From an uncultured Methanosarcinales archaeon (lineage in GTDB: Archaea > Nanobdellota > Nanobdellia > Woesearchaeales > UBA583): a DNA stretch of 64,000 bases. The stretch spans positions 110,361 to 174,360 of the forward strand of contig CAYSDY010000002.1 of the NCBI GenBank assembly GCA_964429995.1, in the 5' to 3' direction. The notes below the pieces were generated by a model that saw only the letters and a list, made by a program, of their open reading frames with translations, had not been told where the DNA came from and made no database searches. Position numbers and translations under genes: made by a program. Shown piece by piece: positions 1 through 38,348 of the stretch (position 1 is its first letter; each line of letters starts with the position of its first letter).

Positions 1-1208
1 TAATAATGTGTATCAAATAATCCATAATCACTGTAATTCATGTTTAGATTTGTCAATAAGCCAAGTTCTACAATGTATTCATCATCTCCAGAAATAATTG
101 GCAGTGCATTAGAAACATTAGCGATAATTGATTTGCTTTCAGTTTTATTGCTACTAGAATTTAAGGTAACGTTAATTGTGTATGACCCTTGCTGATTGTA
201 CATTAGTTTAGTAGATGTAAAAGTGCCTGTGTTTAAGTTACTAGAATTGCTTATGTATCCATCTCCCCAATTAATAGTTAAATTGTATTCAAAAGAACTA
301 TTATAATTAAAACTTATATTTAATGTTAACGATTTACCTTCAAATAAACTTTGATTAGGTCCAATACTCAAATTTAATGTTTCATTGTAAGAATCTGTGT
401 TTACATAATTGTTTGTTAACGGCAAATAATCATATACTTCTGTCCATAAATCAATCTTATGAGCACTTTCTCCAATTCCATCTAAATTAGTGTCATTTCC
501 GTTATAATCTGACCAAAAATTACCACCTATATGTGTACCATTAATTATGTTATTAGTTAGAAACTTTGTAGTATTAAAATGATTATTTAAATTCCCATTG
601 AATATTATATTATAAGAACAATTAAACTTATTATTATATATGATATTGTTAGAAGAAGGATCCCCCATAAAATCAACAAATTCTATTCCAGTTCCAACTG
701 CTGAATCAAAAATAGAATCTTTTACAGTAACATTATCACTCCCTTCAAATAAGATACCCCAATCCATGTCATAAAAAGAATTATTTTCAATGATATGATT
801 ATCTCCATTAACTTTTATTGAAGTTCTAATGTTATTGAAAGTAGAATTTTGAATTTGTACATTCTGATCACTTGGGTTTCTTATATAAATTCCTAAATTT
901 GTAAAATCTTCAAAAATACAATTTTTGATTGTTATATTAGAATGTTCTATCCATAAGCCTTCGTTTGCCATTCCATTTTTTAAAGTAGATCCATTACAAT
1001 CTAAAAAAATATTATCATTAGAAGTTATGAACCCAACAGCAGGAGATCCCATATTTAATGTGTAAATTCCGTTACATAAAACAGTATCTGAATTTAGATA
1101 ATTTGGATTAGTTAGGTCAGGAACTAAACAACTATGTGTTATTCTAATGTTAAAAATAAAAATCAAAAATAAAAGTATCAGGATTTTAAATTTATTTTTA
1201 GTTGCCAT
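1..1208 (-). CDS. Secreted parallel beta-helix repeat protein (NosD/pectate-lyase-like), N-terminal signal peptide; C-terminus truncated by window edge
   Basis: ATG at 1208 (minus). My own translation gives MATKNKFKILILLFLIFIFNIRITHSC..., a signal peptide followed by repeated N/G/I-rich beta-helix-like repeats (NITIKNCIFEDF, NVTVKDSIFDS) with no stop codon to position 1. Absent from the ORF track because it runs off the window. Confidence 0.5.
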   Translation of the reverse strand, partial: MATKNKFKILILLFLIFIFNIRITHSCLVPDLTNPNYLNSDTVLCNGIYTLNMGSPAVGFITSNDNIFLDCNGSTLKNGMANEGLWIEHSNITIKNCIFEDFTNLGIYIRNPSDQNVQIQNSTFNNIRTSIKVNGDNHIIENNSFYDMDWGILFEGSDNVTVKDSIFDSAVGTGIEFVDFMGDPSSNNIIYNNKFNCSYNIIFNGNLNNHFNTTKFLTNNIINGTHIGGNFWSDYNGNDTNLDGIGESAHKIDLWTEVYDYLPLTNNYVNTDSYNETLNLSIGPNQSLFEGKSLTLNISFNYNSSFEYNLTINWGDGYISNSSNLNTGTFTSTKLMYNQQGSYTINVTLNSSSNKTESKSIIANVSNALPIISGDDEYIVELGLLTNLNMNYSDYGLFDTHY

Positions 1209-1222
1209 TTTATTTTGAGAAA

Positions 1223-4200
1223 TTAACATTCTCCTTCATTATATTTTGTGATTCCTGCCTTATTTGCAAGACAACTATTTGGATAAGTTTTCTTATTGGC
1301 ACAAACAGGTTCGTAATCAGAAGAACATAGAACATTCTTTGAATAATCTGTGGAGTCGTTGCTAAAAATGTTTTTTATCCATCGTTCAATTTTTCTAAAA
1401 ACACTAGGTTCTAAATTAGTGATTTTGATTTTTCCTTCTGTAAATTTTAAGTAAAAAGTTTGTCCAGGATTTTTGGATAAGATAATTTCTTCAAGTATTT
1501 CTTGATTTATTTCTATTAGTATTTGTGCATTTTGCGAATGGTCTTCTTGAATGATTCCAGTGCTTATATCAATATTTAATTTTTCTATACTTAAATCTGT
1601 TCTAATTCCGTTAATGTTGATGATGTTTTTTGTTTTTAGAAAATTAACCAGATCATCATAACTTGAGATATAATAATCTGCTATTTGAATGTAGGTTATA
1701 TTTTCTAAAGATTTATTCAATAAGTGTTGACTGATGATTTCTGATAAATCTTCTTTACTTAAATTAGTTTTTTTACTTTGGTTTTTATCTAGTATTATTT
1801 CAAAATCATAATCTTTTTTATCACACATTTTTTTAAGGATGAAATAGCTTGCTTCTAATTCTTGATGATTTAGAACCTTATCGTTCTTTGATTTAATATT
1901 TCTATTTCTGGAAATTGATTTTAATTTTTCTAAGCTGGAATCTTTAGAAATAATAGTGTAATTTTTATTTTTGTAATATGAATCTGATAAATATGTATTT
2001 TTAATTGATTCAAAATAACTGCAATCTAATTTAAGGCTTTTAAAATCAGTTGCCTTTAAACTGATACCTATATTTTTTTTTATATCGTTAAATTTAATAG
2101 AATCGAATAAAATTTCTATTCTTTTATAGGTTGGTTGTGTAATGTTTAATTCTTTTACAGGCTCTGGTGTGATTGCAAACATTCTTACATATCTTTGGTA
2201 AGTAATCATTTTAAGTTCACAGTCATATGAGTTTTTTGAACATTCTAAGGCAAGAATTTGGTTTTTATTAGGATTAATATCAATTGCAACAATATTTTTA
2301 TTGTTTGTTACATTGTATACTAAATCTATTCTTTTTAAAGCAAAATCATAATAATAAATACTGCTATTTAATGTTTTATTATCAATTTCTATTTCTCCTA
2401 AAGAAAAAAACATACCTTTTGGAATATTATTAGAATCTAGTTTGTAATCAAATCTTAAATCATATATTCTTCCTTTTGGTATTGTAAATTCAAAAGTTGA
2501 ATTAATTGGATATTTATTTAAAATATTTTTATCGTTTTTAATTATTTGAACAATAGCCCCAGAACTTGAAGATCCGTGTGTTGTTAATGCTATATATTTT
2601 CCGTCGTTAGAATATGCAACATAAGCAGGATTATAATAAGATCCCTTTGTAGATAAAACATCAAATACAAAGGTTTTATTTGTGCTATTATTTATGCCCA
2701 TGTAGTTATGATAAACTAAAGAATGTGTATTAGATGATATGTATGATGATGGGTCAATTCCTACTTGTTTAGACATTATATAAGATTCTTTTGAATCAGC
2801 AGGATTTCTCATTAAATATTGTTGACAATTTGGAACATTAGTTCCAAAATAACTATGATTTGAGTATAATTCGTAATATTTGTCTAAATATTCCTGTTCA
2901 TTAATTCCGTAATAATATTTTGCTCCCATTAATTCGGATTCTTTAAAATAAATCCATTCTGCTGAGTTAACAGAAGATAGTTGTTTATTAGGGGAAATAG
3001 ATTCTAAATTTACATTTAATGTGGGGAAAAATCTTATTTTAAACAAATCCAATTTAGTTTGTGGGTCTTTTTCTTTACTTACAAAATAAATATTTTTACT
3101 TGCATCTTTTGACCAGCCAGTTAGAAATTGTTTTGTATAATCGGGAATGTAAAAAAGAGCATTTCTTATAAAATTAAAACTATTACTATTTTCGTTAAAA
3201 TTCATTAAGTGATACAATAGGCTTTTATCTATTTGGGAATTACTATTAGATGCTACACCATAGATAAAAGAATTTCCATCAGGTGAAAAATAACCGCAAG
3301 TATCTCTTTGTGAATTTCCACTGTCTAAAACTCTTATAGACTTAACGTTGTAGCTAAAATTATTATTGAAAAATAAACTTATATTTTTAGATTTTTTATC
3401 TTCAAATTCATCTTTTATTGAATCTTTTGATACACATTGTCCATTTTTCCAAATTTTATTATTTAATACAGAACATGCTTTATGTAAATTTGATTCGTAA
3501 CATGTATCAAAAAAAGCGTCCCAAATAAAATTATTTTCTTTACAATCTTCTTCATCTTCTAAGTCAAAACATTCGTCTAAAGAATCAGACCAATACAAAT
3601 CATCATTTAAACATTCTGCTTGTTCTATTGATTCAGCACAAACTCCATAAGAAGAAACAAATAATCCATCTTCATCACAACATTCATCTTCACTTTCAAC
3701 ACACATTCCTAAATTTTCACAAAAGAAAAGATCTTCAGACATACATTCATAAACATCTTCCGATTCAATACAATCTCCATCTAAATAAAATGCTTCCTGT
3801 TCAATACATTCCATTTCAAAATCTGATTCATAACATGAATCAGTTATAATACTCCAAAAATTTCCTTCAATTAAACATTCTGCTTCATTTTCTGTTTCGG
3901 CACAATATTCTTCATCTTCAACCCAAAAGCCATTTTTCCAGTTTGTACATTCAAATTCATTATATTCTACACCTTCAGAAATACAATATCCATCTTCCCA
4001 AATTCCACCTGTTTCTTCACAATATCCCTGTTCAAACGAAACACATTCATCTTCTTGGTTTAAAATTCCTGAACAATAATCATCTGTATCATATTGACAA
4101 AGACCAATTTCAAAACAGGTTGCTTGTTCTAAATCTATGCATTCATCTAATTCATCAATATACATTTGTTCTTCATATTCACAACATTCAGGAGTAGAAC

Positions 4201-4657
4201 CTCTGATTAAGCTGTCATCAATAAACATGTCACAATTTTCAATCATGTAATCTGCAAATACTTCCCAGCAGAAATCATTCATTTCATCTTCATATTCATA
4301 AACGCAGATATCACCGTAATAATCTTCATTTTCTTCAACACATTCTTGTCCATTGCTATATTCTGGAAATTCTGCCAGACAATCATTTTCGTATTCCTCT
4401 TTATGTTCATTTAAACATTCCCAAGAATATATTGAATCACCAAGTGGAAATTCTTCTAGACACATATTTTTTAATTCATCTGCAAAATCATTTTCGCAGA
4501 CTTCCTGACAAGCTAATTGATGGAAAAAAGTTCCATTAACAAAATTAGCAAAAATTAAAATATTAATAAAAAGAATTAAGATTTTATTAATATTAACGTA
4601 TCTTTTAAATTCAATTATATCTTTTTTTGAATTATATTTTTTTAATGAATTACTCAT
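1223..4657 (-). CDS. Large membrane-anchored/secreted protein: Cys-rich acidic tandem repeat region, PD40/TolB-like beta-propeller repeats, C-terminal Kazal-type inhibitor-like domain
   Basis: 1144-aa ORF. N-terminal signal anchor ILILFINILIFANFV. About 60 Cys in D/E-rich repeats (ECxxE...C). FSPDGNSF and YSNDGKYIAL PD40-like motifs. C-terminal CSSDYEPVCANKKTYPNSCLANKAGITKYNEGEC matches the Kazal Cys/Tyr spacing. Confidence 0.6.
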   Translation of the reverse strand: MSNSLKKYNSKKDIIEFKRYVNINKILILFINILIFANFVNGTFFHQLACQEVCENDFADELKNMCLEEFPLGDSIYSWECLNEHKEEYENDCLAEFPEYSNGQECVEENEDYYGDICVYEYEDEMNDFCWEVFADYMIENCDMFIDDSLIRGSTPECCEYEEQMYIDELDECIDLEQATCFEIGLCQYDTDDYCSGILNQEDECVSFEQGYCEETGGIWEDGYCISEGVEYNEFECTNWKNGFWVEDEEYCAETENEAECLIEGNFWSIITDSCYESDFEMECIEQEAFYLDGDCIESEDVYECMSEDLFFCENLGMCVESEDECCDEDGLFVSSYGVCAESIEQAECLNDDLYWSDSLDECFDLEDEEDCKENNFIWDAFFDTCYESNLHKACSVLNNKIWKNGQCVSKDSIKDEFEDKKSKNISLFFNNNFSYNVKSIRVLDSGNSQRDTCGYFSPDGNSFIYGVASNSNSQIDKSLLYHLMNFNENSNSFNFIRNALFYIPDYTKQFLTGWSKDASKNIYFVSKEKDPQTKLDLFKIRFFPTLNVNLESISPNKQLSSVNSAEWIYFKESELMGAKYYYGINEQEYLDKYYELYSNHSYFGTNVPNCQQYLMRNPADSKESYIMSKQVGIDPSSYISSNTHSLVYHNYMGINNSTNKTFVFDVLSTKGSYYNPAYVAYSNDGKYIALTTHGSSSSGAIVQIIKNDKNILNKYPINSTFEFTIPKGRIYDLRFDYKLDSNNIPKGMFFSLGEIEIDNKTLNSSIYYYDFALKRIDLVYNVTNNKNIVAIDINPNKNQILALECSKNSYDCELKMITYQRYVRMFAITPEPVKELNITQPTYKRIEILFDSIKFNDIKKNIGISLKATDFKSLKLDCSYFESIKNTYLSDSYYKNKNYTIISKDSSLEKLKSISRNRNIKSKNDKVLNHQELEASYFILKKMCDKKDYDFEIILDKNQSKKTNLSKEDLSEIISQHLLNKSLENITYIQIADYYISSYDDLVNFLKTKNIININGIRTDLSIEKLNIDISTGIIQEDHSQNAQILIEINQEILEEIILSKNPGQTFYLKFTEGKIKITNLEPSVFRKIERWIKNIFSNDSTDYSKNVLCSSDYEPVCANKKTYPNSCLANKAGITKYNEGEC

Positions 4658-4915: not shown

Positions 4916-5548
4916 ATGGTAAAGCTACTTACAGAAAAACAATTGAATATCTTCAAGGTTTTTAGAGAAAATATTTTCAAAGAATATACCTATAATGAAT
5001 TAAAAGAAAAACTAGATGAAAAATCCAATAGTTTTTTAATATCTTCTTTAAAAAAAATTAAAGAAATGGATTTAATTATAGATCAAAAAATTAATAATTC
5101 TAAAATTTATTATTTAAATTTAGAAAATGATTTAGTTTTTGATTATATTGAACTTATAAATTACGATTTTTATAAATCAAATACATTAAAAAAAATAATT
5201 AATTTATTAAAAAATCAATTAGATACTCAACTATATTCATACTCAATTGTAATATTTGGATCTTTTGCAATAGATAAAGAGAAAAAAAACTCAGATTTAG
5301 ATATTGCAATTTTTATTGAAGATGAGAGAAATAGAGAATTTATTGAAAATAGTTTTAAATCAATTAAACTAAAATCATTAATTGAATTAGATTTACATGT
5401 AATTTCAAAAAAAGAATTTTTAAAGATGTTAAAAGTTGATTATTCTAATTTGGGTAAACTAATTTATCAAAAACATAAATGTATTTATAATACGAAATTA
5501 TTTTATAAAATATTAAAAGAAGGAGATAAAAATGGATTTAGAATATAA
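4916..5548 (+). CDS. Nucleotidyltransferase (minimal Pol-beta-type NTase, MNT-like) with N-terminal wHTH-like region
   Basis: IFGSFAIDKEKKNSDLDIAIF matches the GS...D.D signature of minimal nucleotidyltransferases. The downstream gene overlaps by 17 nt. Confidence 0.6.
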   Translation: MVKLLTEKQLNIFKVFRENIFKEYTYNELKEKLDEKSNSFLISSLKKIKEMDLIIDQKINNSKIYYLNLENDLVFDYIELINYDFYKSNTLKKIINLLKNQLDTQLYSYSIVIFGSFAIDKEKKNSDLDIAIFIEDERNREFIENSFKSIKLKSLIELDLHVISKKEFLKMLKVDYSNLGKLIYQKHKCIYNTKLFYKILKEGDKNGFRI

Positions 5549-5648
5549 AACCTATATTGAAAGAGCAGAAAATGAAATAGAACTTGCAGAGATTATATTA
5601 GAGATTTCAACAAATTCTAATAAAAAAGAAGAATTTAATTTATTATAG
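5532..5648 (+). pseudogene. Truncated HEPN-like fragment (38 codons) overlapping the NTase gene, a degraded MNT/HEPN toxin-antitoxin partner
   Basis: MDLEYKTYIERAENEIELAEIILEISTNSNKKEEFNLL*. It resembles the first helix of HEPN proteins but lacks the Rx4-6H motif and is far too short. Confidence 0.3.
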
Positions 5649-5712: not shown

Positions 5713-6276
5713 TCAATCAGCATAAATAGTTTCTTCATCATATTTATTATATATATGATTCATATTGTTTAAACTTTTTAACTGAATTTTTTCATTATTT
5801 ATTTCAACAATACTTATTGATGTTGGATCTAATACAATATTTTTTGTTTTTTCAGGTTCGATCTCTAATGTTTTTGAAATGAAAAACTTCATAATATTCC
5901 CATGAGAAACAACAAATACTTTTTTAAGATTCATAGATATTAATTTATTCCAAAAAATATTAGCTCTTTCTAAATCTTCTTCAATTCTATTCGATCTTGT
6001 ACCTTCTTTAGGAGCACCTCCGACAATTAATCTATGTATCTCTTGAAGTTCATTTGTTATTTTAAGCTCTGGTTTATTGATATTTTGTAATTGAATTTCT
6101 TTTGCTGTTAGTTGAGCTCTTTCTAAATCAGATGATATAATTAAATCAATTTTTTCATTTTTTAAACTTTCTGCTAATAGATTTATTTGTTTTTTACCAT
6201 TCTCAGTAAGAATTGGAGGTTTATTTGGGTCTAAATTGGCTTCTGTTTCTGCATGTCTAATTAAATATATTTCCAT
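5713..6276 (-). CDS. Histidine phosphatase family protein (phosphoglycerate-mutase-like)
   Basis: N-terminal LIRHAETEAN (RHG-type catalytic His motif) and later SHGN. Last gene of the tightly packed minus-strand operon, 1 nt after the upstream stop. Confidence 0.7.
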   Translation of the reverse strand: MEIYLIRHAETEANLDPNKPPILTENGKKQINLLAESLKNEKIDLIISSDLERAQLTAKEIQLQNINKPELKITNELQEIHRLIVGGAPKEGTRSNRIEEDLERANIFWNKLISMNLKKVFVVSHGNIMKFFISKTLEIEPEKTKNIVLDPTSISIVEINNEKIQLKSLNNMNHIYNKYDEETIYAD

Positions 6277-6277
6277 T

Positions 6278-6850
6278 TTACTTAGTTAAAATATCATAAA
6301 TATTCTTCTCTAGTTCTTCTTTAACATTATCAAAAGAATGATTAGTATTCATATAATTAATATTTATTTCTAAGTTTTTAGCTATTTCTTTTGAATAATT
6401 TTGAAATTTTTCTTTATCATTTGTTCCTTGATAAATAACTATATCTTTGTTTTTCAAATGATTGATGTCAAACACTACATCTTCTAACTTCAACAAACCT
6501 AAATCTGTATTCATTATGTTAGATATAGTTGAATTTCCAATAATTATAGGAGATGCCAAAAATATATATTTATCAAAATTAATATTGGTTAATAAAGAAA
6601 TAACTCCACCAAAGCTTTTACATATTGTAAAAATATGTTTATAGTTTTTTTCTTCTTTTTTTAATTCTAAATTAATTAATGAAACAAGCTTATCAAATGT
6701 TGTATTTTCAAAATCACAAATAACCTCTATAACATCAAACTTATCTTCAAATGTTTCTATTTCAAATAATGAATCAAACTTTTTTTTAGATGCACCTGAA
6801 AAAAACACTATTAAAGATTCATTTCTATTATCAATTATTTTATTTATCAT
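6278..6850 (-). CDS. Small alpha/beta-hydrolase-like protein (putative Ser-Asp-His)
   Basis: LIVFFSGA, CKSFGG (nucleophile-elbow-like), QGTNDK and NHSF motifs. I prefer the internal ATG at 6850 (11-nt overlap with the upstream gene) over the longest ORF start at 6928. Confidence 0.45.
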   Translation of the reverse strand: MINKIIDNRNESLIVFFSGASKKKFDSLFEIETFEDKFDVIEVICDFENTTFDKLVSLINLELKKEEKNYKHIFTICKSFGGVISLLTNINFDKYIFLASPIIIGNSTISNIMNTDLGLLKLEDVVFDINHLKNKDIVIYQGTNDKEKFQNYSKEIAKNLEININYMNTNHSFDNVKEELEKNIYDILTK

Positions 6851-7880
6851 TTTTATTATACATACATAATAAGTTTCCTTTATATAATTCTCCAGTTTCC
6901 CAATATGAATAAGCTCTACAACCTCCACATAATTGAATTAATTCACAATCTTTACAATTACCTTCAAATTTCCTATTCCTCATGATATTATAATCTTTAG
7001 AATTGTTCCAAATATCAATTATAGAAGTAGTATTAGTATCACCAATTATAATATCATTTAACATAGGACAGAATGCTACATTACCATCATTATTAAAATA
7101 CATATAACTAATTCCAACACTACAACCTGCATACAAATTAAAAGTACCATAATTGTCTTTAATATTTTGTAATAATGATTTATTTGCAGCTAATGCCAAT
7201 GGATCTCCAGAGAAATAATGAATATTATATTTTTCAGAATATTTTGGAAGTTGTTCTAATATTTTAAAATATTCTTTTTTATCTACGAATAATTCTTTTT
7301 CATTAAGATTGGCATATCCCATATAAATACATCCTCTCAATCCAACTTCATCTGCACCTAAATCTTTTGCAAATTTAAAGAAATCTTCAATGTCATCTTT
7401 ATTAATATTCATTATTGTAAGTCTTAAAACAAATGGAATATTTAACAACACACAGTTTTGAGATGCTTCTACTACCTTATCATATGATAATTTATTTTGT
7501 CTAATATAATTATGAGTTTCTTTTTTATAGCTATCTAAAGAGAATTGTATTCTATCCAAACCTATTTCTTTTAATTTTTTTAATTTTTCTAAATTACAAA
7601 AATATGCATTTGAAACCAATATTATTTTCATTTTAGTATTTTTCTTAATAAATTCAATAATTTCATATAAATAAGGATATAGTAATGGCTCTCCACCCCC
7701 TAATTCTATCCATTCAACTTCATCTCCCCAGTTTGTATTTATTTGGGTTAAGATATCTATTACTTTTTCTTTTGAGATATGATTATTCTCATCAACTCTT
7801 CCTCTACAATGTAAACATCTAAAATTACATTTTCCTGTTAAATCAATATGTATTATTTTCGGTTTAAATTTTAAGTTCAT
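6840..7880 (-). CDS. Radical SAM enzyme with C-terminal SPASM/twitch-like Cys-rich domain
   Basis: CNFRCLHC (CX3CX2C) near the N-terminus. C-terminal CKDCELIQLCGGCRAYSYWE Cys cluster. The ATG at 7880 forms an ATGA overlap with the upstream stop; an alternative ATG lies at 7943. Confidence 0.8.
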   Translation of the reverse strand: MNLKFKPKIIHIDLTGKCNFRCLHCRGRVDENNHISKEKVIDILTQINTNWGDEVEWIELGGGEPLLYPYLYEIIEFIKKNTKMKIILVSNAYFCNLEKLKKLKEIGLDRIQFSLDSYKKETHNYIRQNKLSYDKVVEASQNCVLLNIPFVLRLTIMNINKDDIEDFFKFAKDLGADEVGLRGCIYMGYANLNEKELFVDKKEYFKILEQLPKYSEKYNIHYFSGDPLALAANKSLLQNIKDNYGTFNLYAGCSVGISYMYFNNDGNVAFCPMLNDIIIGDTNTTSIIDIWNNSKDYNIMRNRKFEGNCKDCELIQLCGGCRAYSYWETGELYKGNLLCMYNKNDK

Positions 7881-8626
7881 TTTTTTAATGTTGTTATTGC
7901 CCTTGGTTGTAATATATATATATTTCCATGATATATTGTCCATTCAATATCCTGTGGATATTTAAATATAGACACTATTTGTTTACCAATTTCAGCTAAT
8001 TCATAAATTTGATTTTTAGATAAAATATTTTTATTTCTACCATACATATGTCTAATATTATCAGAGTTAATTAAATATGTATCTGCAATTGTATTACCTG
8101 AAACTAATGCGTCACATGTTCCTGCTTTTACTTCTAATAACATCTCTTCTTTTTTTGACATTGGACTTTGTGTAAACAATGTTCCTGAAAAATTGCCTTT
8201 CAAAAACTCTTGTATGATTACAGCGAATGACAAATTATCAATATTTATTGATAAAGCTAAAGCATAGTCTTGTAATCTTTCTGATTTAGAAGAATTCCAG
8301 CAAGAAATGATACTTGATGCAATATTTTCCACTTTAACATTTAACAACGATTCAAATTGACCGGGGAAAGCATATTTATTTCCATCTTCTAGATTGGAAG
8401 ATGACCTCACAGCATAATTTTTTTCATGATTTACAAATGAATTAAATGTTTTATCTTGTTTTAATAATTTTTCTAATTCTTCTATATTTGGATTTTGCTG
8501 TCTAATAGTATCTGAGATTACAATTCCTTTTGGGACTAAAATATTATGTTTTATTATTTGTGATAAATTAAATGCTTTATTTCCGTATAAATTTCTATCG
8601 TGAATCCTTGCCAAACCATCTATCAT
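7877..8626 (-). CDS. PEP-utilizing enzyme N-terminal ATP-binding domain protein (PPDK_N / PEP synthase / rifampicin phosphotransferase-like), stand-alone
   Basis: YGNKAFNLSQI and YAVRSSSNLEDG correspond to the GGKAANL and AVRSSA.AED motifs of PPDK_N. ATGA overlap at both ends. Confidence 0.65.
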   Translation of the reverse strand: MIDGLARIHDRNLYGNKAFNLSQIIKHNILVPKGIVISDTIRQQNPNIEELEKLLKQDKTFNSFVNHEKNYAVRSSSNLEDGNKYAFPGQFESLLNVKVENIASSIISCWNSSKSERLQDYALALSINIDNLSFAVIIQEFLKGNFSGTLFTQSPMSKKEEMLLEVKAGTCDALVSGNTIADTYLINSDNIRHMYGRNKNILSKNQIYELAEIGKQIVSIFKYPQDIEWTIYHGNIYILQPRAITTLKK

Positions 8627-9630
8627 TTTCTTTTAATTTTTGCTTCTCCAATATTTTCATCAAAGTTAACTTTTATACTAATAATATCATCATCTTGTAT
8701 TTTTTCAGTTCCTTTATTATTATACAATTCAGTTCCAACTATACAAGGGATGTCTAATTCTCTAGAAACAACTGCTGCATGACAAGTTATTGAACCAGTA
8801 TCAGTAATTATTCCGCCTGCTTTTGTCATTAAACTTGTTAATTGAGGATCTGTTCTTGGTGCAACAAGTATATCACCTTTATTAAAATTCATATTTTTTA
8901 AATCATCTCTAATAGTTATAGGGTCAAACTTTGTTAGTATTTTAGCAATTCCTTCTATTTCCCCTTCTGATGCAGGAATTCCATTTATTATTTGTTCCAA
9001 ATTAGTTTGTTTAGAAAAAATTAAAGCAGCTTGCATATAATCTAATTTAATTTTTTGATTAAATCTGTCTACTAAATTATTTTGATAACTATTAATTGGG
9101 TCAACTAATCTTATATAGCTATTCTTATGTCCTCTAATTACAATATTATGAGTAGGATAGCTAGTTGGGTAATTAATTTCAACTAATATTGGTAATCCTT
9201 TCTCAACAAATGGATGCAAATCGTCATATTCAAAAGGCCCATTTATTATATTAAAATTTTCACTATTTGATAATTCATCTATATATGGCAAAAATTCATT
9301 CATAAAATCATCAAATAAATCATGTGGGAAAAATATAGGATTTGGTTTTCTTGGGCCCTCCATTAACATAGTTACACGATATCCATTATCAATAGCATAT
9401 TTAGCAAGTTTGGGATAACTTCCATATTCTCCAAACCCTCCTTCCCAAAATCTAATGATTCTATGTATTTCCATTTCTTTTTCTTCTGTTAATGGATATT
9501 TCTCAGGTTCAAAATAATTAAACATCATTAATGCACTTGCAGCTATGCAAGTAGTTGGAGTAGTTTGTAAATAACTATTAACAGCTAATTTTATACTTTT
9601 TCTTTGTAAATAATTATATTTATCTTCCAT
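8623..9630 (-). CDS. Fusion: papain-fold C39-like cysteine peptidase domain + PEP-utilizing enzyme mobile (phosphohistidine swivel) domain
   Basis: N-terminus has QTTPTTCIAASALMMF, then HNIVIRGH...RLVDPI (Cys-His-Asp pattern of C39 double-glycine peptidases). C-terminus has TGSITCHAAVVSRELDIPCIVGT, the phosphohistidine swivel signature. Confidence 0.55.
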   Translation of the reverse strand: MEDKYNYLQRKSIKLAVNSYLQTTPTTCIAASALMMFNYFEPEKYPLTEEKEMEIHRIIRFWEGGFGEYGSYPKLAKYAIDNGYRVTMLMEGPRKPNPIFFPHDLFDDFMNEFLPYIDELSNSENFNIINGPFEYDDLHPFVEKGLPILVEINYPTSYPTHNIVIRGHKNSYIRLVDPINSYQNNLVDRFNQKIKLDYMQAALIFSKQTNLEQIINGIPASEGEIEGIAKILTKFDPITIRDDLKNMNFNKGDILVAPRTDPQLTSLMTKAGGIITDTGSITCHAAVVSRELDIPCIVGTELYNNKGTEKIQDDDIISIKVNFDENIGEAKIKRK

Positions 9631-10549
9631 CTTCCTTTGTTAAATCTAGTAGTAAATCTTGTTTTATATCTAAAGCATAATTTGCATTATTAACTAAATG
9701 ATTATTACTTTTTGCTTTTAATTTTAAAAAAATTGATTCTCTAAATAATACATCTAAAACACCGAATTCAACTTTGTATCTTTTTTGAGGTTCTTCATAT
9801 CCTCCCCAATGTGACATTCTATGTAATAATCTAATACTTTCTTCTAATTCGGGATGTTTATTAGCAATATTTTCAATTAATGTTTGATATCTTTCAACTT
9901 TTTTATTTTGGTTAGCTTGCACTCTTTCTAATAATGAGAAATCATAGTCTAATTCAAAAGTATTTAATTCTAAATGAGCTAAGTCAATATTAGAATATGT
10001 AAATTCATTTGCAAATTCAGTAATATTTTTGTTTCCATTTCTTACTTGATAAACATAATTTACTAATTGAATTTCAAAACTACTAATTGGAGGGATAACT
10101 ATTTTCTCAGCTGTATCTAATAATTCTTTTCGAATTTTTTCTATTCTTGGCTCTAATCCTTCAGAAACATAAACCCTTAATCTACAATCATTAAATATAA
10201 ATTGTTTTAAGTAAGTCTCCCAATTGTCTTCACTACTTAGAATAACATCCCAATTTTGTGCTAATTGAAATAAAGAATTATCATGTTGATACCAACTAGA
10301 AATATATTTATTAAAAAAGTCTAAATCTGAACATTCATCTCTTTCTTTTCTAATTTGTTTCATAGAATTTGCAAATAAATTTCCAGAGTGTTCAGATTTT
10401 AGTATTAAATTTCTTAACTCAATTAAATCCATGCCTAAATCTTTCAAACTAGAATTTACAACATTATTTATTATCTCACGATTATAGCTTTGTAACCAAA
10501 ATAAATAATCCCTTTCAAATTGAAAGGGCACAGTTAATTTTTGAATCAT
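9620..10549 (-). CDS. Hypothetical protein, co-operonic with the peptide-modification genes
   Basis: 309-aa ORF with no motif I recognise. Its ATG overlaps the stop of the upstream 37-aa ORF (ATGA). Confidence 0.45.
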   Translation of the reverse strand: MIQKLTVPFQFERDYLFWLQSYNREIINNVVNSSLKDLGMDLIELRNLILKSEHSGNLFANSMKQIRKERDECSDLDFFNKYISSWYQHDNSLFQLAQNWDVILSSEDNWETYLKQFIFNDCRLRVYVSEGLEPRIEKIRKELLDTAEKIVIPPISSFEIQLVNYVYQVRNGNKNITEFANEFTYSNIDLAHLELNTFELDYDFSLLERVQANQNKKVERYQTLIENIANKHPELEESIRLLHRMSHWGGYEEPQKRYKVEFGVLDVLFRESIFLKLKAKSNNHLVNNANYALDIKQDLLLDLTKEDGR

Positions 10550-10659
10550 TTTATTCTTCTTTTACTTCTTGTGATTTTTTGTGATTCTTTTATATCAGCT
10601 TTGATACCACCATAAGCAACGCATGCTAGTTGCCATAAAACTTTTTCTGTATTTTCCAT
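10546..10659 (-). CDS. Candidate precursor peptide (37 aa) with double-glycine motif
   Basis: My translation is MENTEKVLWQLACVAYGGIKADIKESQKITRSKRRIK*. The N-terminal half is hydrophobic/acidic and ends in GG. The C-terminal half is strongly cationic. Stop TGA overlaps the ATG of the next gene. A TATA-like tttataaaaat lies about 45 nt upstream. Confidence 0.35.
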   Translation of the reverse strand: MENTEKVLWQLACVAYGGIKADIKESQKITRSKRRIK

Positions 10660-10820
10660 TTTGAAGTATAACAAGATTTACTTGTTATGTATTTATGATT
10701 TTTATTTTTATAAATGTTACGATATTACTCGAAGTTAATAACATTAAAATTTATAAACTTTTGTTTATGTCACTACTAATTACTAAAACTTAAATAGTTT
10801 GAACTTTTAGAATATTATAG
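10660..10820. promoter_or_regulatory. Divergent promoter region (TATA-like boxes on both strands) between the peptide operon and integrase
   Basis: AT-rich 160-nt spacer with tttataaa-type boxes at about 10702..10713 (reading minus) and 10748..10757. Confidence 0.3.
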
Positions 10821-11948
10821 ATGCAGTTTATAGAATCATACAAATTTAAGCATAAAGATTGGAATCAAACAAAAATTAGAGTTTTGATTCACATGGTAAG
10901 AAATTTTGAACCTGAAAATCATAGACTATTTGCTCAAATGCTTTCAATGTTAGAACCTGAAAGCTCAAAGAAAATATTTGAAGAAATAAAAAATATGGGA
11001 GAGTATTTCAAAAGAATTATTGATATTGCAAATGTCGAAGATGAGAAGAATAATTTAGTTGAACAAATTTTAGCTTCAAAAAATGATTCAACAATTAATT
11101 CCACTGAAAGTTATGATGTATTGAGTATGTATAATAAATATAAAGAATCATTTTCTGAGTGGATGTTTACAAATAGAACTAAAAGGTATGCTACAAGTAC
11201 TGTAAATGAATGTTCTAAATTGTTTGCATGTGATGTTAAGAATATTTTAGATATTAGAAGAGAGATTGTAAATAATAAAAGCTTACCTCCTAGAACTAAT
11301 AATGCTTTTAGAGCTTTTTTGAATTTTGTAGAAGAAAAGACTCCAATTAGTCCGATTTTACTAAATGATTTAAGAGTATATATTAAAGGTGGTGTTGGAG
11401 AACATGTTGACAAGAGAGTTCCAACTAAGGAAGAAATTTTAAGATCAATTCAAACAATTAAAAGAGATTATTCCAATAACGATTTAATGCTTTATTATTT
11501 TTTATTTGAGTCAGGATGTAGATTTGAGGAACTTAAGAAAGTTATCTTAGAATTTGATTTTGATAAGTTTGTTGAAGGAGATGATTTTTCTTACTATAAA
11601 TTGTTTTGGAGAAGAGGAAAGAAGAACTCATTTATATTATTCTTTAGACCTGAAACTATAAAACATATTGTAGATAATTTAAAGATTTATCAAGATAATA
11701 CTTATTTAGAAAGGTTTAAAGATTGGCTTCAAGATAATCAAGATATTGAAAGTTCAAAGTATGTAAGAAAATTTACATTTACAGAAATGATTCATACTAG
11801 TGAGATTGATATAACTATTGCAAATCTGTTTCAGGGAAGAACAACAAAAGGAGACATTGGTGAGAAACATTACTTGGAATATGAAAGATTACTAGTTAAA
11901 TGGTATCCAAAATTTTTACCATTTGCAAAAGAAATTGAAGGTGAGTAA
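10821..11948 (+). CDS. int: Tyrosine recombinase / integrase
   Basis: C-terminal catalytic region has ESGCRFEEL (R) and RKFTFTEMIHTSE ... GRTTKGDIGEKHYLEY (H..R...Y). Paralogous to the integrase at 37283. Confidence 0.75.
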   Translation: MQFIESYKFKHKDWNQTKIRVLIHMVRNFEPENHRLFAQMLSMLEPESSKKIFEEIKNMGEYFKRIIDIANVEDEKNNLVEQILASKNDSTINSTESYDVLSMYNKYKESFSEWMFTNRTKRYATSTVNECSKLFACDVKNILDIRREIVNNKSLPPRTNNAFRAFLNFVEEKTPISPILLNDLRVYIKGGVGEHVDKRVPTKEEILRSIQTIKRDYSNNDLMLYYFLFESGCRFEELKKVILEFDFDKFVEGDDFSYYKLFWRRGKKNSFILFFRPETIKHIVDNLKIYQDNTYLERFKDWLQDNQDIESSKYVRKFTFTEMIHTSEIDITIANLFQGRTTKGDIGEKHYLEYERLLVKWYPKFLPFAKEIEGE

Positions 11949-12005
11949 AAGTCTTTAGAGACAACTTTATAAATAATCTTGTTATGAATATGTTAGGATA
12001 CAAAA

Positions 12006-13031
12006 ATGAAAGATTTAACAATCAAAGATGAAATTACTGAATTTATTATATATAAAGCACCTAATGAAGAAATTAAGGTAGAAGTATTTTTACATAATGA
12101 AACAGTCTGGTTAACGCAAAAAAGAATGTCGGAACTTTTTGATGTTGGAATCCCTGCAATTTCTAAACATTTAGATAATATTTATTCTGAAGGAGAATTA
12201 GATAAAGATTCAACTATTTCCATTTTGGAAACAGTTCAAAAGGAAGGAAATAGAGAAGTTAAAAGAAAACTCGAGTATTATAATTTAGATGTAATTATTG
12301 CAGTTGGTTATAGAGTTAATTCATATAGAGCAACTCAATTTAGAATTTGGGCAACAAAAATACTCAAAGAATACATTATTAAAGGATTTGCAATGGATGA
12401 TAAGAGATTAAAAAATCCTAATAATGTTTTTGGTAAGGATTATTTTGATGAACAATTAGAAAGAATACGAGATATAAGAAGTAGTGAGAGAAGATTCTAC
12501 CAAAAAATAACTGATATCTATTCTCAGTGTAGTGCTGATTATGATTCTAAATCTAAAATTACTGAAGATTTTTTTGCAATAGTTCAAAATAAACTACATT
12601 ATGCAATCTCTGGAAAAACAGCTGCAGAAATTATATATTCTAGAGCAAATAGTAAAGAACAAAATATGGGACTTACTTCTTGGAAAAATTCTCCTAAAGG
12701 AAAGATTAGAAAAACTGATATTAGTATTGCAAAGAATTACCTTAACAATGAAGAATTGGATTCATTAAATAGAATTGTATCAATGTATTTAGATTATGCT
12801 GAAATGCAAGCTAAAAAGCAAAATATAATGTATATGAAAGATTGGGTTAATAAATTAAATGCTTTTTTAAAATTTAATGAAAGGGAAATCTTACAAGATT
12901 TGGGCAAAGTTACTTCTGAGATTGCTAAAGAGTTTGCAGAAACAGAATTTGAAAAATATCGTATCATTCAGGATAGATTATTTAAGAGTGATTTTGATAA
13001 GTTAATTGAAAAAAGTAGAGATATAAAATAA
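12006..13031 (+). CDS. RhuM family virulence/cell-filamentation-like protein
   Basis: ETVWLTQKRMSELFDV, YYNLDVIIAVGYRVNS, ATQFRIWATKILKEYIIKGFAMDD are the characteristic RhuM blocks. RhuM genes are commonly RM-associated. Confidence 0.75.
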   Translation: MKDLTIKDEITEFIIYKAPNEEIKVEVFLHNETVWLTQKRMSELFDVGIPAISKHLDNIYSEGELDKDSTISILETVQKEGNREVKRKLEYYNLDVIIAVGYRVNSYRATQFRIWATKILKEYIIKGFAMDDKRLKNPNNVFGKDYFDEQLERIRDIRSSERRFYQKITDIYSQCSADYDSKSKITEDFFAIVQNKLHYAISGKTAAEIIYSRANSKEQNMGLTSWKNSPKGKIRKTDISIAKNYLNNEELDSLNRIVSMYLDYAEMQAKKQNIMYMKDWVNKLNAFLKFNEREILQDLGKVTSEIAKEFAETEFEKYRIIQDRLFKSDFDKLIEKSRDIK

Positions 13032-13953
13032 ATATTTTCAACATTGAATTTATGTTACCATGCTATATTGTAATAAGTTTTAGATAATTTATTTTTTTAT
13101 AAATTGTAATTTTTTATTTTTTAGTTGTTAATTAATGAATTTTGTTTGTTTGTGAATGTTTTTAGTGATTTTTTTTATTTTGCTAATTTTTTTTATCTCT
13201 ATGGAAGTTAATCGCCCCAAAAAGATTAGTTTTTATGTGGGTGTATTTTTGATGTTTTTTGAGGTGGGTTTGTTAATACATATATATGAAATTTTTGGAT
13301 TTTTGTGACAAAAGGAAAAGTTCATTTTTCTATTGATTTTTTAATTAAAAATTCAATTTGAAAAAATCTAAGTTTTTATTTGTTTTTTCAAGAAGTTATT
13401 AGGCATTAGTAATGTTAATTGCTATTTTTGGTGATTTTTTTTGAATTTATAGTGGCGTCTAGAAATAAGAGATAATTTTAAAATATATAAAATCGCCACT
13501 ATATGCCAAAAATGATATTTACTAGTATTTTTGAGTTTCTTAAAAATACTATTTAAATAGCATTTTTACTATATATGAATTTGAGTTTGGAAGCTTTCAG
13601 TTGTTTTCCCACCAAAATAGTTTTTTTTATGAGTTGGTTTTTTCTGTTTTTTGGATGTTTGCTCTGAGTATACATACTAAATCTGAAAATCGTGTTTTTA
13701 AATTATGGTTTTTTGGGATTGAAATAAAATTTTGTGAATAAAACAAAAGTTTGAAATTAGCTTCAAATTGAAGAGTTTTTGGTATTTTATGATAAGTTGT
13801 AGGTCAATTGAGAGTTTGTATTGAATTTTTAGGTTTGAAGTGGGTTAATTTGGGAATTGAAGTTAATAAAAAACTATTTATTTGCTGTCTTTAGTTATAA
13901 TAAGTAATAAAGTATTTAAATAAACTTAATTAAAAATTATTATATAATAAAAA

Positions 13954-16500
13954 ATGGCTAAAAAAAAAGTAAAACTTATTCCAGTCAAAGAAAAAACTAG
14001 TACTGATGATTTTAAAGATCAAGTTAAACAATATACTCATCAAGAATCTAAAAGGATTAATAACCCTCCTATTGGTTTAGTTACAGCAGAAACTGATAGT
14101 TTGAATGGAGTTAAAAAATATGAATATGATCCACATTTAAATCCTCAATTAGTTTGGGCTGGAAAGAAAGAAGGAATTAGTTTTGAAGTTGATACCGTTT
14201 CTCTTCATGTTCATGAAAGAATAGATCCATTATCTATTATTGAGAATGTGAAGAAAAGTGATGGTGAGATACAATTTTCTCTTTTCCATTATTTTGAAAA
14301 TGATAACAGACCTATAAGAGAAGCGATTGAATTTTATAAACACGAACAAAACTGGTCAAATAGATTAATTGCAGGAGATTCTTTGATTGTAATGAATTCT
14401 CTTCTTGAAAAAGAAGGAATGACTAGAAAAGTTCAGATGATTTACATTGATCCACCTTATGGAATTACTTATGGTTCTAATTTTCAACCATTTGTTAATA
14501 AACGAGATGTGAAAGATAGAAAAGATGAAGATTTAACTCAAGAGCCAGAAATGATTAAAGCATTTAGAGACACTTGGGAATTAGGGATTCATTCGTATTT
14601 AAGTTATTTAAGAGATAGATTAAAACTCTCAAAAGATTTATTGACTGATAGCGGAAGTTGTTTTGTTCAAATTTCTGATGAAAACTTACATCATGTAAGA
14701 GAAATAATGGATGAAGTTTTTGGTCCTGAGAATTTTGTTAGTCTGATTGCTTTTAAAAAAGGATTAGGATATTCTGAGAAATTTATTCCTTCTGTTTATG
14801 ATTATTTAATTGTTTATGCAAAGGATAAGACTCAGCAAAAATATAGAAAACCTCTTGTTTTTGATGACGAAGAGAATTTTATTACTTTTGGTTGGATTGA
14901 ATTACCTAATGGTGAAAGAAGAAGAGTTTCTAAAAAAAACGATTTTGTTAATGATAAATTTGTAACTAAAGGGAGATTATTTCAAACATCAACTTTAGTT
15001 TCTAAAGGTTCTGCTAAAGAATCACAAGAATATGAAATGGAAGGAACAAGATATTTCCCTTCGACAGGAACACATTGGAAAACAAAATGTCCTGAAGGAT
15101 TAAATAATTTGAAAAGTAAAAATCGTTTAATTGGCGTGAATAAAACTCTTGCTTTTGTAAGATTTAAAGAGGATTTCCCATATAAAATACCAACTAATGT
15201 TTGGGATGATACATTACAAAGTACATTTTCCTCTGATAAAGTCTATGTTGTACAAACTAATACTAAAGTTATTCAAAGATGTATTCTTATGACAACCGAC
15301 CCAGGAGATTTAGTATTAGATCCTACTTGTGGAAGTGGAACTACTGCATTTGTTGCAGAACAATGGGGAAGAAGATGGATAACTTGCGATACATCGAGAG
15401 TTGCTACAACACTAGCAAAACAAAGATTAATGACATCTATTTTTGATTATTATGAATTAGCTCATCAAAATGAAGGGATTAAATCTGGTTTCAAATACAA
15501 AACTGTTCCACATATTACTTTAGGTTCGATTGCAAATAACGAGCCAACAAATGAAGAAACTTTATACGACCAACCTTTTATTGACAAAAAGCGTAGAAGA
15601 GTTACTGGTCCTTTTACCTTAGAAGCTGTTCCATCTCAGAGAGTAACAAGTTTTGAAGATGTTGAACAAGCAATACAAGAACCTGATATGACAATTGCTC
15701 GTTCTGGAGAAACAATGAAACAGAACGATTGGATTGATGAAATGCTTGCAACAGGAATAAGAGGAAAAGCAGGACAAAAAATTGAATTTGTAAGAATAGA
15801 AACTCTTGGTGGAACAAGATGGGTTCATGCAGAAGCAGAGACTAAAGACGGACAAAAAGTAGTTATTTCTTTTGGTCCCCAATATGCACCATTAGAACAA
15901 AGGCAAGTAGAATTGGCAATTGAAGAATCTCAATCATTAGTTCCAAAACCAAAAATGATTATTTTTGCGTCATTCCAATTTGATCCTGAAGCAGCCAAAG
16001 ATATAGATGAGTTAAAATGGCCTGGAGTCAATATTCTAAAAGTTCAGATGAATACTGATCTCTTAACAAACGACTTAAAGAAAAAGCGTTCAAGTAGTGA
16101 ATCCTTCTGGTTAATGGGACAACCAGATATAGAAGTTAAAAAACAAAACGATAAATATGTTGTAGAAGTAAATGGATTTGATTATTATAACACAAAAACT
16201 GGTGAAATCGAATCTGGAGATTCTTCAAAAATTGCAATGTGGGAATTGGATACTGATTATGATGGAAGAAGTCTTTATCCAAGACAAGTGTTTTTTCCAA
16301 TGGCTGGAAGTGGAGAAGGTTGGGATAAACTCGCAAAAAACATTAAAGCAGTTATTGATGAAGAACTAATTGAACAATATAAAGGAAATATTTCAATCCC
16401 TTTCAAACTTGGTCCAAATAAAAGAATAGCTGTAAAAATTATTGATGATAGGGGAATCGAATCTTTAAAGATTGTGGAGATTAAAGATGGAAACAACTAA
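13954..16500 (+). CDS. mod: Type III restriction-modification system methyltransferase (Mod), N6-adenine/N4-cytosine class
   Basis: DPPYGITYG (motif IV) precedes LDPTCGSGTTAFVAEQWGRRWITCD (motif I), the beta-class order. 848 aa, with a long C-terminal extension. Confidence 0.85.
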   Translation: MAKKKVKLIPVKEKTSTDDFKDQVKQYTHQESKRINNPPIGLVTAETDSLNGVKKYEYDPHLNPQLVWAGKKEGISFEVDTVSLHVHERIDPLSIIENVKKSDGEIQFSLFHYFENDNRPIREAIEFYKHEQNWSNRLIAGDSLIVMNSLLEKEGMTRKVQMIYIDPPYGITYGSNFQPFVNKRDVKDRKDEDLTQEPEMIKAFRDTWELGIHSYLSYLRDRLKLSKDLLTDSGSCFVQISDENLHHVREIMDEVFGPENFVSLIAFKKGLGYSEKFIPSVYDYLIVYAKDKTQQKYRKPLVFDDEENFITFGWIELPNGERRRVSKKNDFVNDKFVTKGRLFQTSTLVSKGSAKESQEYEMEGTRYFPSTGTHWKTKCPEGLNNLKSKNRLIGVNKTLAFVRFKEDFPYKIPTNVWDDTLQSTFSSDKVYVVQTNTKVIQRCILMTTDPGDLVLDPTCGSGTTAFVAEQWGRRWITCDTSRVATTLAKQRLMTSIFDYYELAHQNEGIKSGFKYKTVPHITLGSIANNEPTNEETLYDQPFIDKKRRRVTGPFTLEAVPSQRVTSFEDVEQAIQEPDMTIARSGETMKQNDWIDEMLATGIRGKAGQKIEFVRIETLGGTRWVHAEAETKDGQKVVISFGPQYAPLEQRQVELAIEESQSLVPKPKMIIFASFQFDPEAAKDIDELKWPGVNILKVQMNTDLLTNDLKKKRSSSESFWLMGQPDIEVKKQNDKYVVEVNGFDYYNTKTGEIESGDSSKIAMWELDTDYDGRSLYPRQVFFPMAGSGEGWDKLAKNIKAVIDEELIEQYKGNISIPFKLGPNKRIAVKIIDDRGIESLKIVEIKDGNN

Positions 16501-30693: not shown

Positions 30694-30694
30694 A

Positions 30695-38203: not shown

Positions 38204-38279
38204 GACAGGGATTTGAACCCTGAATTCCGAAGGAACTACATTAGCAGTGTAGCGCAATACCGAGTTATGCGATCTTGGC
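38198..38279 (-). tRNA. tRNA-Ser (anticodon GCU), no encoded CCA
   Basis: Minus-strand sequence gccaaga..ctaca-ctGCTaa-tgtag, long variable arm ttccttcggaatt, T-arm cagggttcaaatccctg, acceptor tcttggc plus discriminator g. The 7-bp acceptor and 5-bp anticodon stems pair perfectly. Confidence 0.8.
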
Positions 38280-38308
38280 ATTAGGTCTCTTTTTTTAGTC
38301 GCCGCCGG

Positions 38309-38348
38309 ATTAGCAGTGCTGCGCAATACCGAGTTATGCGACCTTGGC
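38309..38348 (-). repeat. Tandem partial duplicate of tRNA-Ser 5-prime half (acceptor/D-arm/anticodon loop, ~40 nt, 3 mismatches)
   Basis: Reads gccaaggtcgcataactcggtattgcgcagcactgctaat on the minus strand, versus gccaagatcgcataactcggtattgcgctacactgctaat in the tRNA. It lies 29 nt upstream of the tRNA 5-prime end. It is a likely att remnant. Confidence 0.55.

Follow-up and report, generated by a model that had tools for sequence, protein, structure and literature searches.

What is made by an operon that combines the gene for a 37-amino-acid (37-aa) peptide with genes for a peptidase fold fused to a phosphohistidine swivel domain, a separate ATP-grasp subunit and a radical S-adenosylmethionine (rSAM) enzyme? 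The question is raised by seven minus-strand genes (g1 to g7 in order of transcription, positions 5713-10659) in a 64,000-nt stretch of contig CAYSDY010000002.1 (assembly GCA_964429995.1, positions 110,361 to 174,360), from an uncultured archaeon of the Woesearchaeales. This whole stretch is called the window. An earlier note had read the genes as a maturation system resembling those of ribosomally synthesized peptides that are modified post-translationally (RiPPs). The interpretation was supported by the searches reported here: no domain was reassigned, and the 37-aa open reading frame (ORF) was conserved with the cluster. Since a conserved, translated precursor was found as one of four co-occurring core genes, together with a C39 catalytic set and a swivel histidine served by a separate ATP-grasp protein, the cluster is read as probably an undescribed RiPP-like maturation pathway, and possibly as a new RiPP class. 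Confidence in any specific chemistry is low.

Twelve precursors were compared (window, L018, L001, L003-L005, L009, L010, L013, L015, L017 and L019). A small ORF with the motif L-x-[QE]-Φ-s-C-Φ-s-C-G-[GD]-Φ (Φ, hydrophobic; s, small) was present in 12/12 distinct loci covering that part of the cluster; in g1 the block comprises L8-I19 (10603-10638). A stricter form of the motif occurred exactly once per matched locus, always inside the small ORF, and 0 times in 20 shuffles of ~475,000 translated residues. Within the 12-codon block, nucleotide differences at codon positions 1, 2 and 3 numbered 270, 147 and 511, and 285 codon-pair differences were synonymous. Because third positions dominate, g1 is taken to be a translated, constrained peptide. 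It was kept in all 12 loci while the cluster enzymes share only 21-56% identity. The 37-aa ORF singled out in the earlier note was thereby upheld. The 37 residues are counted from the ATG; the mechanical ORF begins at a TTG upstream of it. Pfam and NCBIfam searches of g1 returned no match.

The precursors of the kinase-type loci are MENTEKVLWQLACVAYGGIKADIKESQKITRSKRRIK (window), ...IVLYELACISCGGIKANVKKFIEF (L018), MEKVLWQFSCLACGGISGSLDEEEN (L001), MEKVLWQFSCVACGGISGNLEEECD (L009), ...VILWQFACVACGGINATLE (L003), ...VVLWQMACVTCGGINATIE (L004), MEKKIVLWQLGCLACGGINGTIDENYTAD (L005) and ...VVLWQLACVACGGIDGSVEENYVAK (L010). Those of kinase-less loci are ...VLQEFGCVACGGLSSEE... (L015), ...VVLLEYACLTCGGIAPS... 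(L017), ...LEMSCVACGDVGEIP... (L013) and ...LELSCLACGDAGEIP... (L019). Lengths range from 25 to 42 aa. Gly-Gly lies within the block in 10/12 precursors; 15-35 residues, including the block, stand on its N-terminal side, and tails of 5-19 residues, variable in sequence, follow it (just six, INATLE, in L003 and L004). Because conservation falls on the block itself, the block may serve as the core that is modified and not just as a leader. The "small cationic peptide" expected by the earlier note did not hold for the family: basic tails were found in the window and L018 only, and the other tails are acidic except that of L017, which is about neutral. Basic tails coincide with the alpha/beta-hydrolase arrangement described below (window, L018) and acidic tails occur in every locus in which an HD gene was seen. 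At position -10, Trp or Tyr was found in 8/8 kinase-type and Gln or Leu in 4/4 kinase-less precursors. Both associations come from a small sample confounded by ancestry.

For the rest of the cluster, BLASTP detected g2, C39-domain and rSAM orthologues in every locus extending far enough, with adjacency and start/stop overlaps conserved. The g5 enzyme is the best-conserved component (50-56% identity in kinase-type, 35-39% in kinase-less loci). By the same searches, g4 was found in kinase-type loci only. Its orthologues follow the C39-swivel gene in seven loci, and in L018 it is displaced by a transposase. The kinase-less clusters are ordered peptide - rSAM - g2 - stand-alone C39 (L013/L014), rSAM - g2 - C39 - peptide with an adjoining HD gene (L015/L016), divergently transcribed peptide, then rSAM - g2 - C39 (L017), and peptide - rSAM - g2 - C39 - HD (L019). 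Because these distant clusters keep peptide, rSAM, g2 and C39, the four genes make up the ancestral unit, often accompanied by an HD protein. The split dikinase appears to be an add-on of a small subgroup, in which the swivel was fused to the peptidase and the ATP-grasp subunit recruited; the two members of this subgroup that carry a taxon label are both Woesearchaeota. Of the gene set proposed in the earlier note, peptide, 309-aa protein, rSAM/SPASM enzyme and C39 protein were retained as core. Dikinase and phosphatase were not, given the kinase-less relatives and the HD protein that fills the phosphatase slot elsewhere, kinase-less loci included. The window and L018 share the rearranged order peptide - g2 - g3 - [g4] - rSAM - hydrolase, and both are without HD. 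As a separate observation, the L018 cluster is interrupted by a DDE transposase, with the PPDK_N gene split off onto the opposite strand and a Y1 transposase flanking (1006-3012 and 7452-7931), which suggests recent mobility or decay.

The g2 protein had no match in Pfam or NCBIfam. Word-indexed searches with g2 or its family profile found almost nothing; exhaustive HMMER searching was needed to find the family, and returned only 17 representatives among 1.84 billion proteins. The structure model is all-helical, and no solved structural relative was found. Invariant polar residues (H89-D90, N120-D121, E253, R257, D266 and R270) suggest a binding or catalytic site. In every locus the gene lies immediately 5' of the C39-like gene, overlapping it or a few nt apart, from which we infer that the two proteins form a complex.

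The N-terminal half of g3 has a papain-like fold that comes closest to solved C39 domains. The window copy scored weakly (DUF3335, 22.5 bits against a cutoff of 25; Peptidase_C39_2, 18.4 against 24). Among 12 fused and stand-alone homologues, DUF3335 matched 10 and Peptidase_C39 five, with best E values of 6.8e-8 and 6.5e-8. Gln22, Cys28 and His161 were invariant in 12/12 sequences and Asp177 was conserved in 11/12 (Asn in L010). These family-wide matches and the Gln/Cys/His/Asp set bear out the papain-fold, C39-like domain of the earlier note. So does PF00391 (PEP-utilizers, E 1e-20) for the phosphohistidine swivel on the same protein, with Cys283-His284 invariant in all fused homologues, as in phosphoenolpyruvate (PEP) synthases. 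The g3 family profile matched PEP synthase (9dae, E 6.7e-28) and rifampin phosphotransferase (Rph; 5fbs, E 6.6e-24) in their swivel domains, and had no PDB match beyond the swivel region. The g3 structure model rests on 7 sequences, with the swivel poorly modelled. In the C39 domains of kinase-type proteins a Gly-rich loop (FWxGGxGEYGSYPKLA) is invariant; in kinase-less homologues it is degenerate.

Like the C39 domains of PCAT/AMS transporters (LahT150, 6mpz; PCAT1; ComA), g3 keeps the Gln/Cys/His/Asp set, and its cognate small peptide has Gly-Gly after a short hydrophobic/acidic segment. Unlike them, it has no ABC exporter fused to it, and the cluster is without one, so the system is not a PCAT; the domain is instead fused to a swivel here, while kinase-less relatives have it as a separate protein. 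Conservation in the peptide is highest in the segment ahead of Gly-Gly, which has two conserved cysteines. Similarity in sequence is low, and the window copy lies under the Pfam gathering scores. The C39-swivel fusion was found in ~10 distinct proteins, namely the window's own, six other full-length proteins from a search of 5.8 billion clusters, and those of L009, L010 and L018, which were reached by other routes. Fused g3 occurred in two Woesearchaeota among 185,579 GTDB species representatives, and on three contigs in JGI metagenomes. The earlier note knew of no described family with this architecture, and the literature search found no link between RiPPs and PEP-utilizing or swivel enzymes.

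The separate ATP-binding protein g4 was identified as proposed (PF01326, PPDK_N, E 2.8e-34) and contains no other domain. In NCBIfam it scored best against PRK06241, Rph and PigC-type enzymes, in their N-terminal ATP-grasp regions, and stayed far under every equivalog cutoff. A housekeeping PEP synthase split into g3 and g4, named in the earlier note as a possible refutation, was rejected: the PEP-utilizers_C barrel was not found in either protein (Pfam, NCBIfam), PEP synthase/PPDK equivalog scores were 85.5 against a cutoff of 598 for g3 and 130.5 against 883 for g4, and g3 has a C39 fold in its N-terminal half. In Rph, the swivel histidine is loaded by the ATP-grasp unit and delivers phosphate to an acceptor-binding domain on the swivel's own polypeptide. 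HpeHI is a demonstrated two-component dikinase in which a substrate-binding domain is fused to the swivel domain; its ATP-grasp unit loads the swivel histidine, and phosphate is carried to the acceptor-binding domain on the same polypeptide (PMC12167813). The g3/g4 pair resembles this type in that the ATP-grasp subunit is apart from the subunit with swivel histidine and acceptor-binding domain, and in the conserved histidine within a T-C-H-A-A motif. It departs from the strict HpeHI type in that the acceptor domain is a C39 cysteine-peptidase fold and not the Rph/HpeH substrate-binding domain, that phosphate is presumed to go to a ribosomal peptide or to the protease itself and not to an aromatic small molecule, and that the kinase sits inside an rSAM/precursor operon.

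Side observations were also made on dikinase-like proteins. More than 100 proteins from the search of 5.8 billion clusters (P0009-P0120, ~470-510 aa) have a C-terminal PEP-utilizers swivel and an unannotated N-terminal part. Few members are named by source, mostly from bacteria of the Candidate Phyla Radiation (CPR) and from DPANN archaea. These proteins may be HpeH-like split-dikinase subunits, widespread in small-genome lineages. L018 also encodes a 639-aa PPDK_N + PEP-utilizers protein directly followed by another radical SAM gene (11642-14424), and L001 a second cluster of Radical_SAM, APH kinase and His_Phos_1 genes (14787-16932).

The radical SAM/SPASM assignment of g5 was upheld by Radical_SAM (E 3.5e-27) and SPASM (E 3e-9) matches, with the CxxxCxxC motif at C18, C22 and C25 and all seven SPASM cysteines readable in the sequence. 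The best curated family was NirJ2 (153 bits against a cutoff of 500); lower scores were those of ScmE (110/400), GeoRSP (106/400), PqqE (99/381), ACGX (90/400) and MftC (68/265). With all cutoffs missed, g5 belongs to no curated rSAM maturase family. By sequence, PqqE (best) and SkfB, SPASM/twitch enzymes that modify peptides, are among its nearest solved relatives. In common with rSAM/SPASM maturases (ranthipeptide/sactipeptide enzymes, PqqE, MftC, SkfB), g5 has CxxxCxxC and a 7-Cys SPASM domain, adjoins a short Cys-containing precursor and is accompanied by a protease. It departs from them in falling under every curated equivalog cutoff and in having no RiPP recognition element (RRE)/PqqD domain in cis or as its own gene; the partner is the all-helical g2. 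Identity as the defence enzyme pVip was rejected, as the PADLOC matches (E 1e-18) span only the generic rSAM core (residues 10-173) and the NCBIfam viperin score was 60 against a cutoff of 180.

In another reading, the cluster makes an intracellular cofactor or small molecule in the style of mycofactocin or pyrroloquinoline quinone (PQQ). The peptide would be a scaffold, of which the rSAM enzyme cross-links or decarboxylates a few residues and the protease excises a fragment that is tailored by phosphorylation and dephosphorylation. Absence of an exporter or immunity gene in any locus, the very short tails (six residues in L003/L004), PqqE as best solved sequence relative of g5, and kinase, phosphatase and HD accessories typical for small-molecule tailoring all fit. 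The known pathways share a short precursor, an rSAM/SPASM enzyme, a dedicated peptidase, extra tailoring enzymes and the lack of an exporter. Yet g5 is far under the PqqE and MftC cutoffs, no MftB/PqqD-like RRE and no downstream redox enzymes were found, and no component shows family-level orthology; the peptidase is of another class and a dikinase is present. Unlike a housekeeping cofactor pathway, the cluster is mobile and patchily distributed among hosts with tiny genomes (2 of 185,579 GTDB species representatives), and integrases, transposases or toxin-antitoxin genes lie near several loci. We regard this reading as unlikely, though worth keeping in view.

The small ORF might also be incidental, with rSAM enzyme, dikinase and phosphatase acting on a nucleotide, lipid or cofactor precursor that the C39-like domain merely binds. 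The L001 and L018 regions described above place kinase and rSAM genes together with no obvious peptide, small ORFs not having been searched for there, and the top NCBIfam matches of g5 are the heme-pathway enzymes NirJ2 and AhbD. Conservation of the ORF in every covering locus, its coding substitution pattern and the single motif per locus largely refute this explanation, the C39 catalytic tetrad is conserved, and kinase-less systems retain peptide, rSAM, g2 and C39. It is scarcely credible.

The two last genes were assigned with unequal success. For g7, the histidine phosphatase of the earlier note was recovered (PF00300, His_Phos_1, E 1.1e-29), with all curated equivalogs below cutoff (CobC, 63.7 against 162.9; SixA, 48.3 against 74.5). 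The gene is missing from related clusters, most of which have an HD-domain protein; a weak match to His_Phos_1 lies elsewhere on L001. The histidine phosphatase is an addition particular to the window. The HD proteins pass the Pfam threshold (28-31 bits against 22). The g6 protein had no significant match in Pfam, NCBIfam, PHROG, PADLOC or PDB, and BLASTP found no homologue in any related locus. The proposed Ser-Asp-His hydrolase was not confirmed. In its favour are motifs read from the sequence in canonical alpha/beta-hydrolase order (LIVFFSGAS, CKSFGG, GTNDKE, NHSF) and the alpha/beta hydrolase that L018 has at the same position (Abhydrolase_1, E 3.8e-16), and g6 is possibly a minimal alpha/beta hydrolase. 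Homology between the two was rejected, as BLASTP gave no similarity. HD protein, alpha/beta hydrolase and histidine phosphatase are interchangeable accessories.

Several findings weigh against the RiPP-like interpretation. In the window precursor the second cysteine of the block is replaced by Tyr16 (TAT for TGT/TGC, a single G-to-A change), and L006 and L007, assembled independently, show the same sequence. From this copy a different product, or no product, may result. Two of the 12 precursors carry G-D and not G-G, and none of Ser, Thr or Tyr is invariant (GG+4 is S, T, N or D). No PqqD-type (RRE) match was obtained on any operon protein in Pfam or NCBIfam; g5 has no N-terminal extension for an RRE, as its radical SAM motif starts at residue 18, and an RRE fold was not detected in g2, whose model is without beta strands and so offers no RRE-type winged helix. 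The g6 protein is without family assignment. HD proteins also occur in kinase-less loci (L015/L016, L019), so they are not simply the kinase's counter-enzyme, and a dedicated counter-enzyme role for HD protein or histidine phosphatase is weakened. No transporter or exporter and no obvious immunity gene was found in any locus, so that the product may act inside the cell. Finally, an integrase and a large defence island stand beside the operon, and a role in conflict instead of "natural product" biosynthesis is possible.

For the RiPP-like pathway, the following scheme is proposed from domain content and conservation. The g5 enzyme would modify the block. Among the reactions of SPASM enzymes that modify peptides, formation of Cys-to-carbon thioethers is one of the commonest, and the likeliest product would be a thioether derived from Cys or some other radical cross-link. 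The g3 C39 domain would dock the block and cut after Gly-Gly, with g2, translationally coupled to the peptidase, as peptide-handling partner or second enzyme. In the kinase-type subgroup, g4 would load His284 of the swivel with phosphate. Rph and HpeH have the domain that is fused to the swivel as their acceptor site; by analogy, phosphate would pass to a peptide bound by the C39 domain or to that domain itself, perhaps at its Gly-rich loop. Later, g7 and g6 here, and HD proteins or the alpha/beta hydrolase elsewhere, might remove phosphate or trim the released tail. A lanthionine-type variant, in which the kinase phosphorylates Ser/Thr at GG+4 and the second cysteine attacks, was rejected as a general model, since L009 has Asn and the window has Asp at GG+4.

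A bolder version, which we consider a long shot, couples cleavage to ATP-driven activation. Once the C39 domain had exposed the ...C-x-x-C-G-G carboxyl end, phosphorylated His284 would pass its phosphate to the peptide in the protease active site, giving, say, an acyl phosphate at the newly formed C-terminal Gly. A ~15-residue, radical-modified tag would thereby be driven to ligate, to cyclise or to be conjugated, ubiquitin-like, to another molecule, with histidine phosphatase or HD protein as reset or editing enzyme. If true, such protease-coupled activation would add a new route by which ribosomal peptides are activated and give the PEP-synthase swivel mechanism another function.

The coordinates of the operon and of neighbouring features are collected in Table 1. 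The tight packing reported in the earlier note, with ATGA overlaps, was reproduced from the ORF coordinates: five overlaps (4-nt ATGA at g1/g2, g3/g4 and g4/g5; 11 nt at g2/g3 and g5/g6) and a 1-nt gap at g6/g7 join seven genes of the same direction. Starts of g5 and g6 are internal ATGs, which agree with orthologue N-termini and public gene calls (346 and 190 aa); public calls on the same sequences give identical lengths for g2 to g7 (309, 335, 249, 346, 190 and 187 aa). The operon promoter presumably lies in the 161-bp region upstream of g1. A TTTATAAAAA stretch ~40-55 nt 5' of the g1 ATG is not significant in DNA of 25% G+C, as the window has (~25%).

Table 1. Positions of the operon genes, their domains and neighbouring features in the window.
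Feature	Position	Strand	Description
g1	10546-10659	-	37-aa precursor peptide from own ATG; MENTEKVLWQLACVAYGGIKADIKESQKITRSKRRIK
g2	9620-10549	-	309 aa, all-helical, new family
g3	8623-9630	-	335 aa, C39-type peptidase fold + PEP-utilizer swivel domain
g3 N-terminal domain	9007-9597	-	~residues 12-208, C39-type double-glycine cysteine peptidase fold
g3 C-terminal domain	8623-9006	-	~residues 209-335, phosphohistidine swivel; carrier His284 within TGSITCHAAVVSRE
g4	7877-8626	-	249 aa, stand-alone PPDK_N-type ATP-grasp subunit of split dikinase
g5	6840-7880	-	346 aa, radical SAM + full SPASM
g6	6278-6850	-	190 aa, family not recognised, possibly minimal alpha/beta hydrolase
g7	5713-6276	-	187 aa, branch-1 histidine phosphatase (RHAETE ... 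SHGN)
Intergenic region	10660-10820	.	161 bp, AT-rich, between g1 and divergent archaeal integrase gene
First integrase	10821-11948	+	archaeal type
RhuM/PDC-S05	12006-13031
Type III restriction-modification (R-M) Mod	13954-16500
Type III R-M Res	16472-19288
RmuC	20535-21797
HATPase_c_3 protein	21868-23283
PD-(D/E)XK nuclease	24922-25917
UvrD-PD-(D/E)XK helicase-nuclease	26412-29243
Wadjet JetA-D	29245-35805		complete
Second integrase	37283-38326	-	archaeal type; overlaps tRNA-Ser 38196-38280

The operon is divergent from the first of two archaeal-type integrase genes that bound an island of ~27 kb (10821-38326). A complete Wadjet system in a DPANN-like archaeon is notable. Archaeal marker genes in the window are those for aIF2-gamma, the CCA-adding enzyme, a Taw1-like wyosine rSAM enzyme and the archaeal-type integrases. 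Elsewhere, integrase, KilA-N and PIN genes lie just upstream of the L001 cluster, an integrase and small phage-like genes near that of L015/L016, and HicAB and PIN genes near that of L017; L018 is transposase-ridden, and the L010 and L019 clusters sit among housekeeping genes (tRNA synthetases, gyrase A). Because integrases are near the cluster in three loci, it may be carried by mobile elements.

These surroundings bear on an explanation in which the cluster is a conflict or defence module that moves with integrative elements. The modified peptide or the protease-kinase itself would act against viruses or between cells, perhaps as a toxin that proteolysis or phosphorylation switches on. The adjacent integrase and island (RhuM, type III R-M, RmuC, UvrD/PD-(D/E)XK and Wadjet), the mobile and toxin-antitoxin genes at L001, L015/L016, L017 and L018, and the partial pVip matches of g5 point this way. 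Against it, PADLOC gave only these partial matches, which cover the generic rSAM core, and no model for the other operon components, and the L019 and L010 clusters have housekeeping neighbours. PHROGs matched only generic kinase, rSAM and integrase families. On the PADLOC and PHROG results together, a known defence system was rejected. The explanation is compatible with a RiPP mechanism and not opposed to it; we consider it improbable.

Further observations were made on window genes outside the island. The 1144-aa protein encoded at 1223-4657 (-) has a hydrophobic N-terminal segment and a long Cys-/acid-rich region, and as a whole no Pfam match; its last ~35 residues (CSSDYEPVCANKKTYPNSCLANKAG...EGEC) scored 20.8 bits for Kazal_1 against a cutoff of 21, so that an archaeal surface protein may here carry a protease-inhibitor module of Kazal type. 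A nucleotidyltransferase gene (NTP_transf_2/Polbeta; PADLOC PDC-M05A/PDC-S09) and an overlapping 38-aa ORF (4916-5648, +) converge on the operon 3' end and may form an MNT-type toxin-antitoxin pair. At 59778-61907 (+), an unusual 709-aa fusion joins phosphoglycerate kinase (PGK, E 2.6e-101) to a PfkB-family carbohydrate kinase (E 2.5e-47).

RiPP clusters had been called rare in archaea by the earlier note. This was not borne out: they are widely predicted there, including in DPANN, with few characterised, and for archaeal rSAM RiPP clusters wide prediction, DPANN included, stands beside none characterised so far (PMC12144867). If the RiPP-like interpretation is right, the cluster would represent a new RiPP-like family from DPANN archaea, where no characterised peptide natural product was found. 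No precedent was found for a precursor with a conserved CxxCGG block at the protease site, for an obligatory all-helical partner without solved structural relative that replaces the RRE, or for the fusion of a double-glycine protease with a phosphohistidine swivel that a separate ATP-grasp subunit serves. The protease-swivel fusion would, if true, extend the "swivelling His" mechanism of PEP synthase and Rph to a peptide or protein acceptor and provide a new ATP-dependent module for RiPP engineering. The family is small (about a dozen loci, short genes, a substrate of 25-42 aa) and thereby directly testable. Its mobile, toxin-antitoxin and defence surroundings raise the question of what role such peptides have in episymbiotic, minimal-genome archaea.

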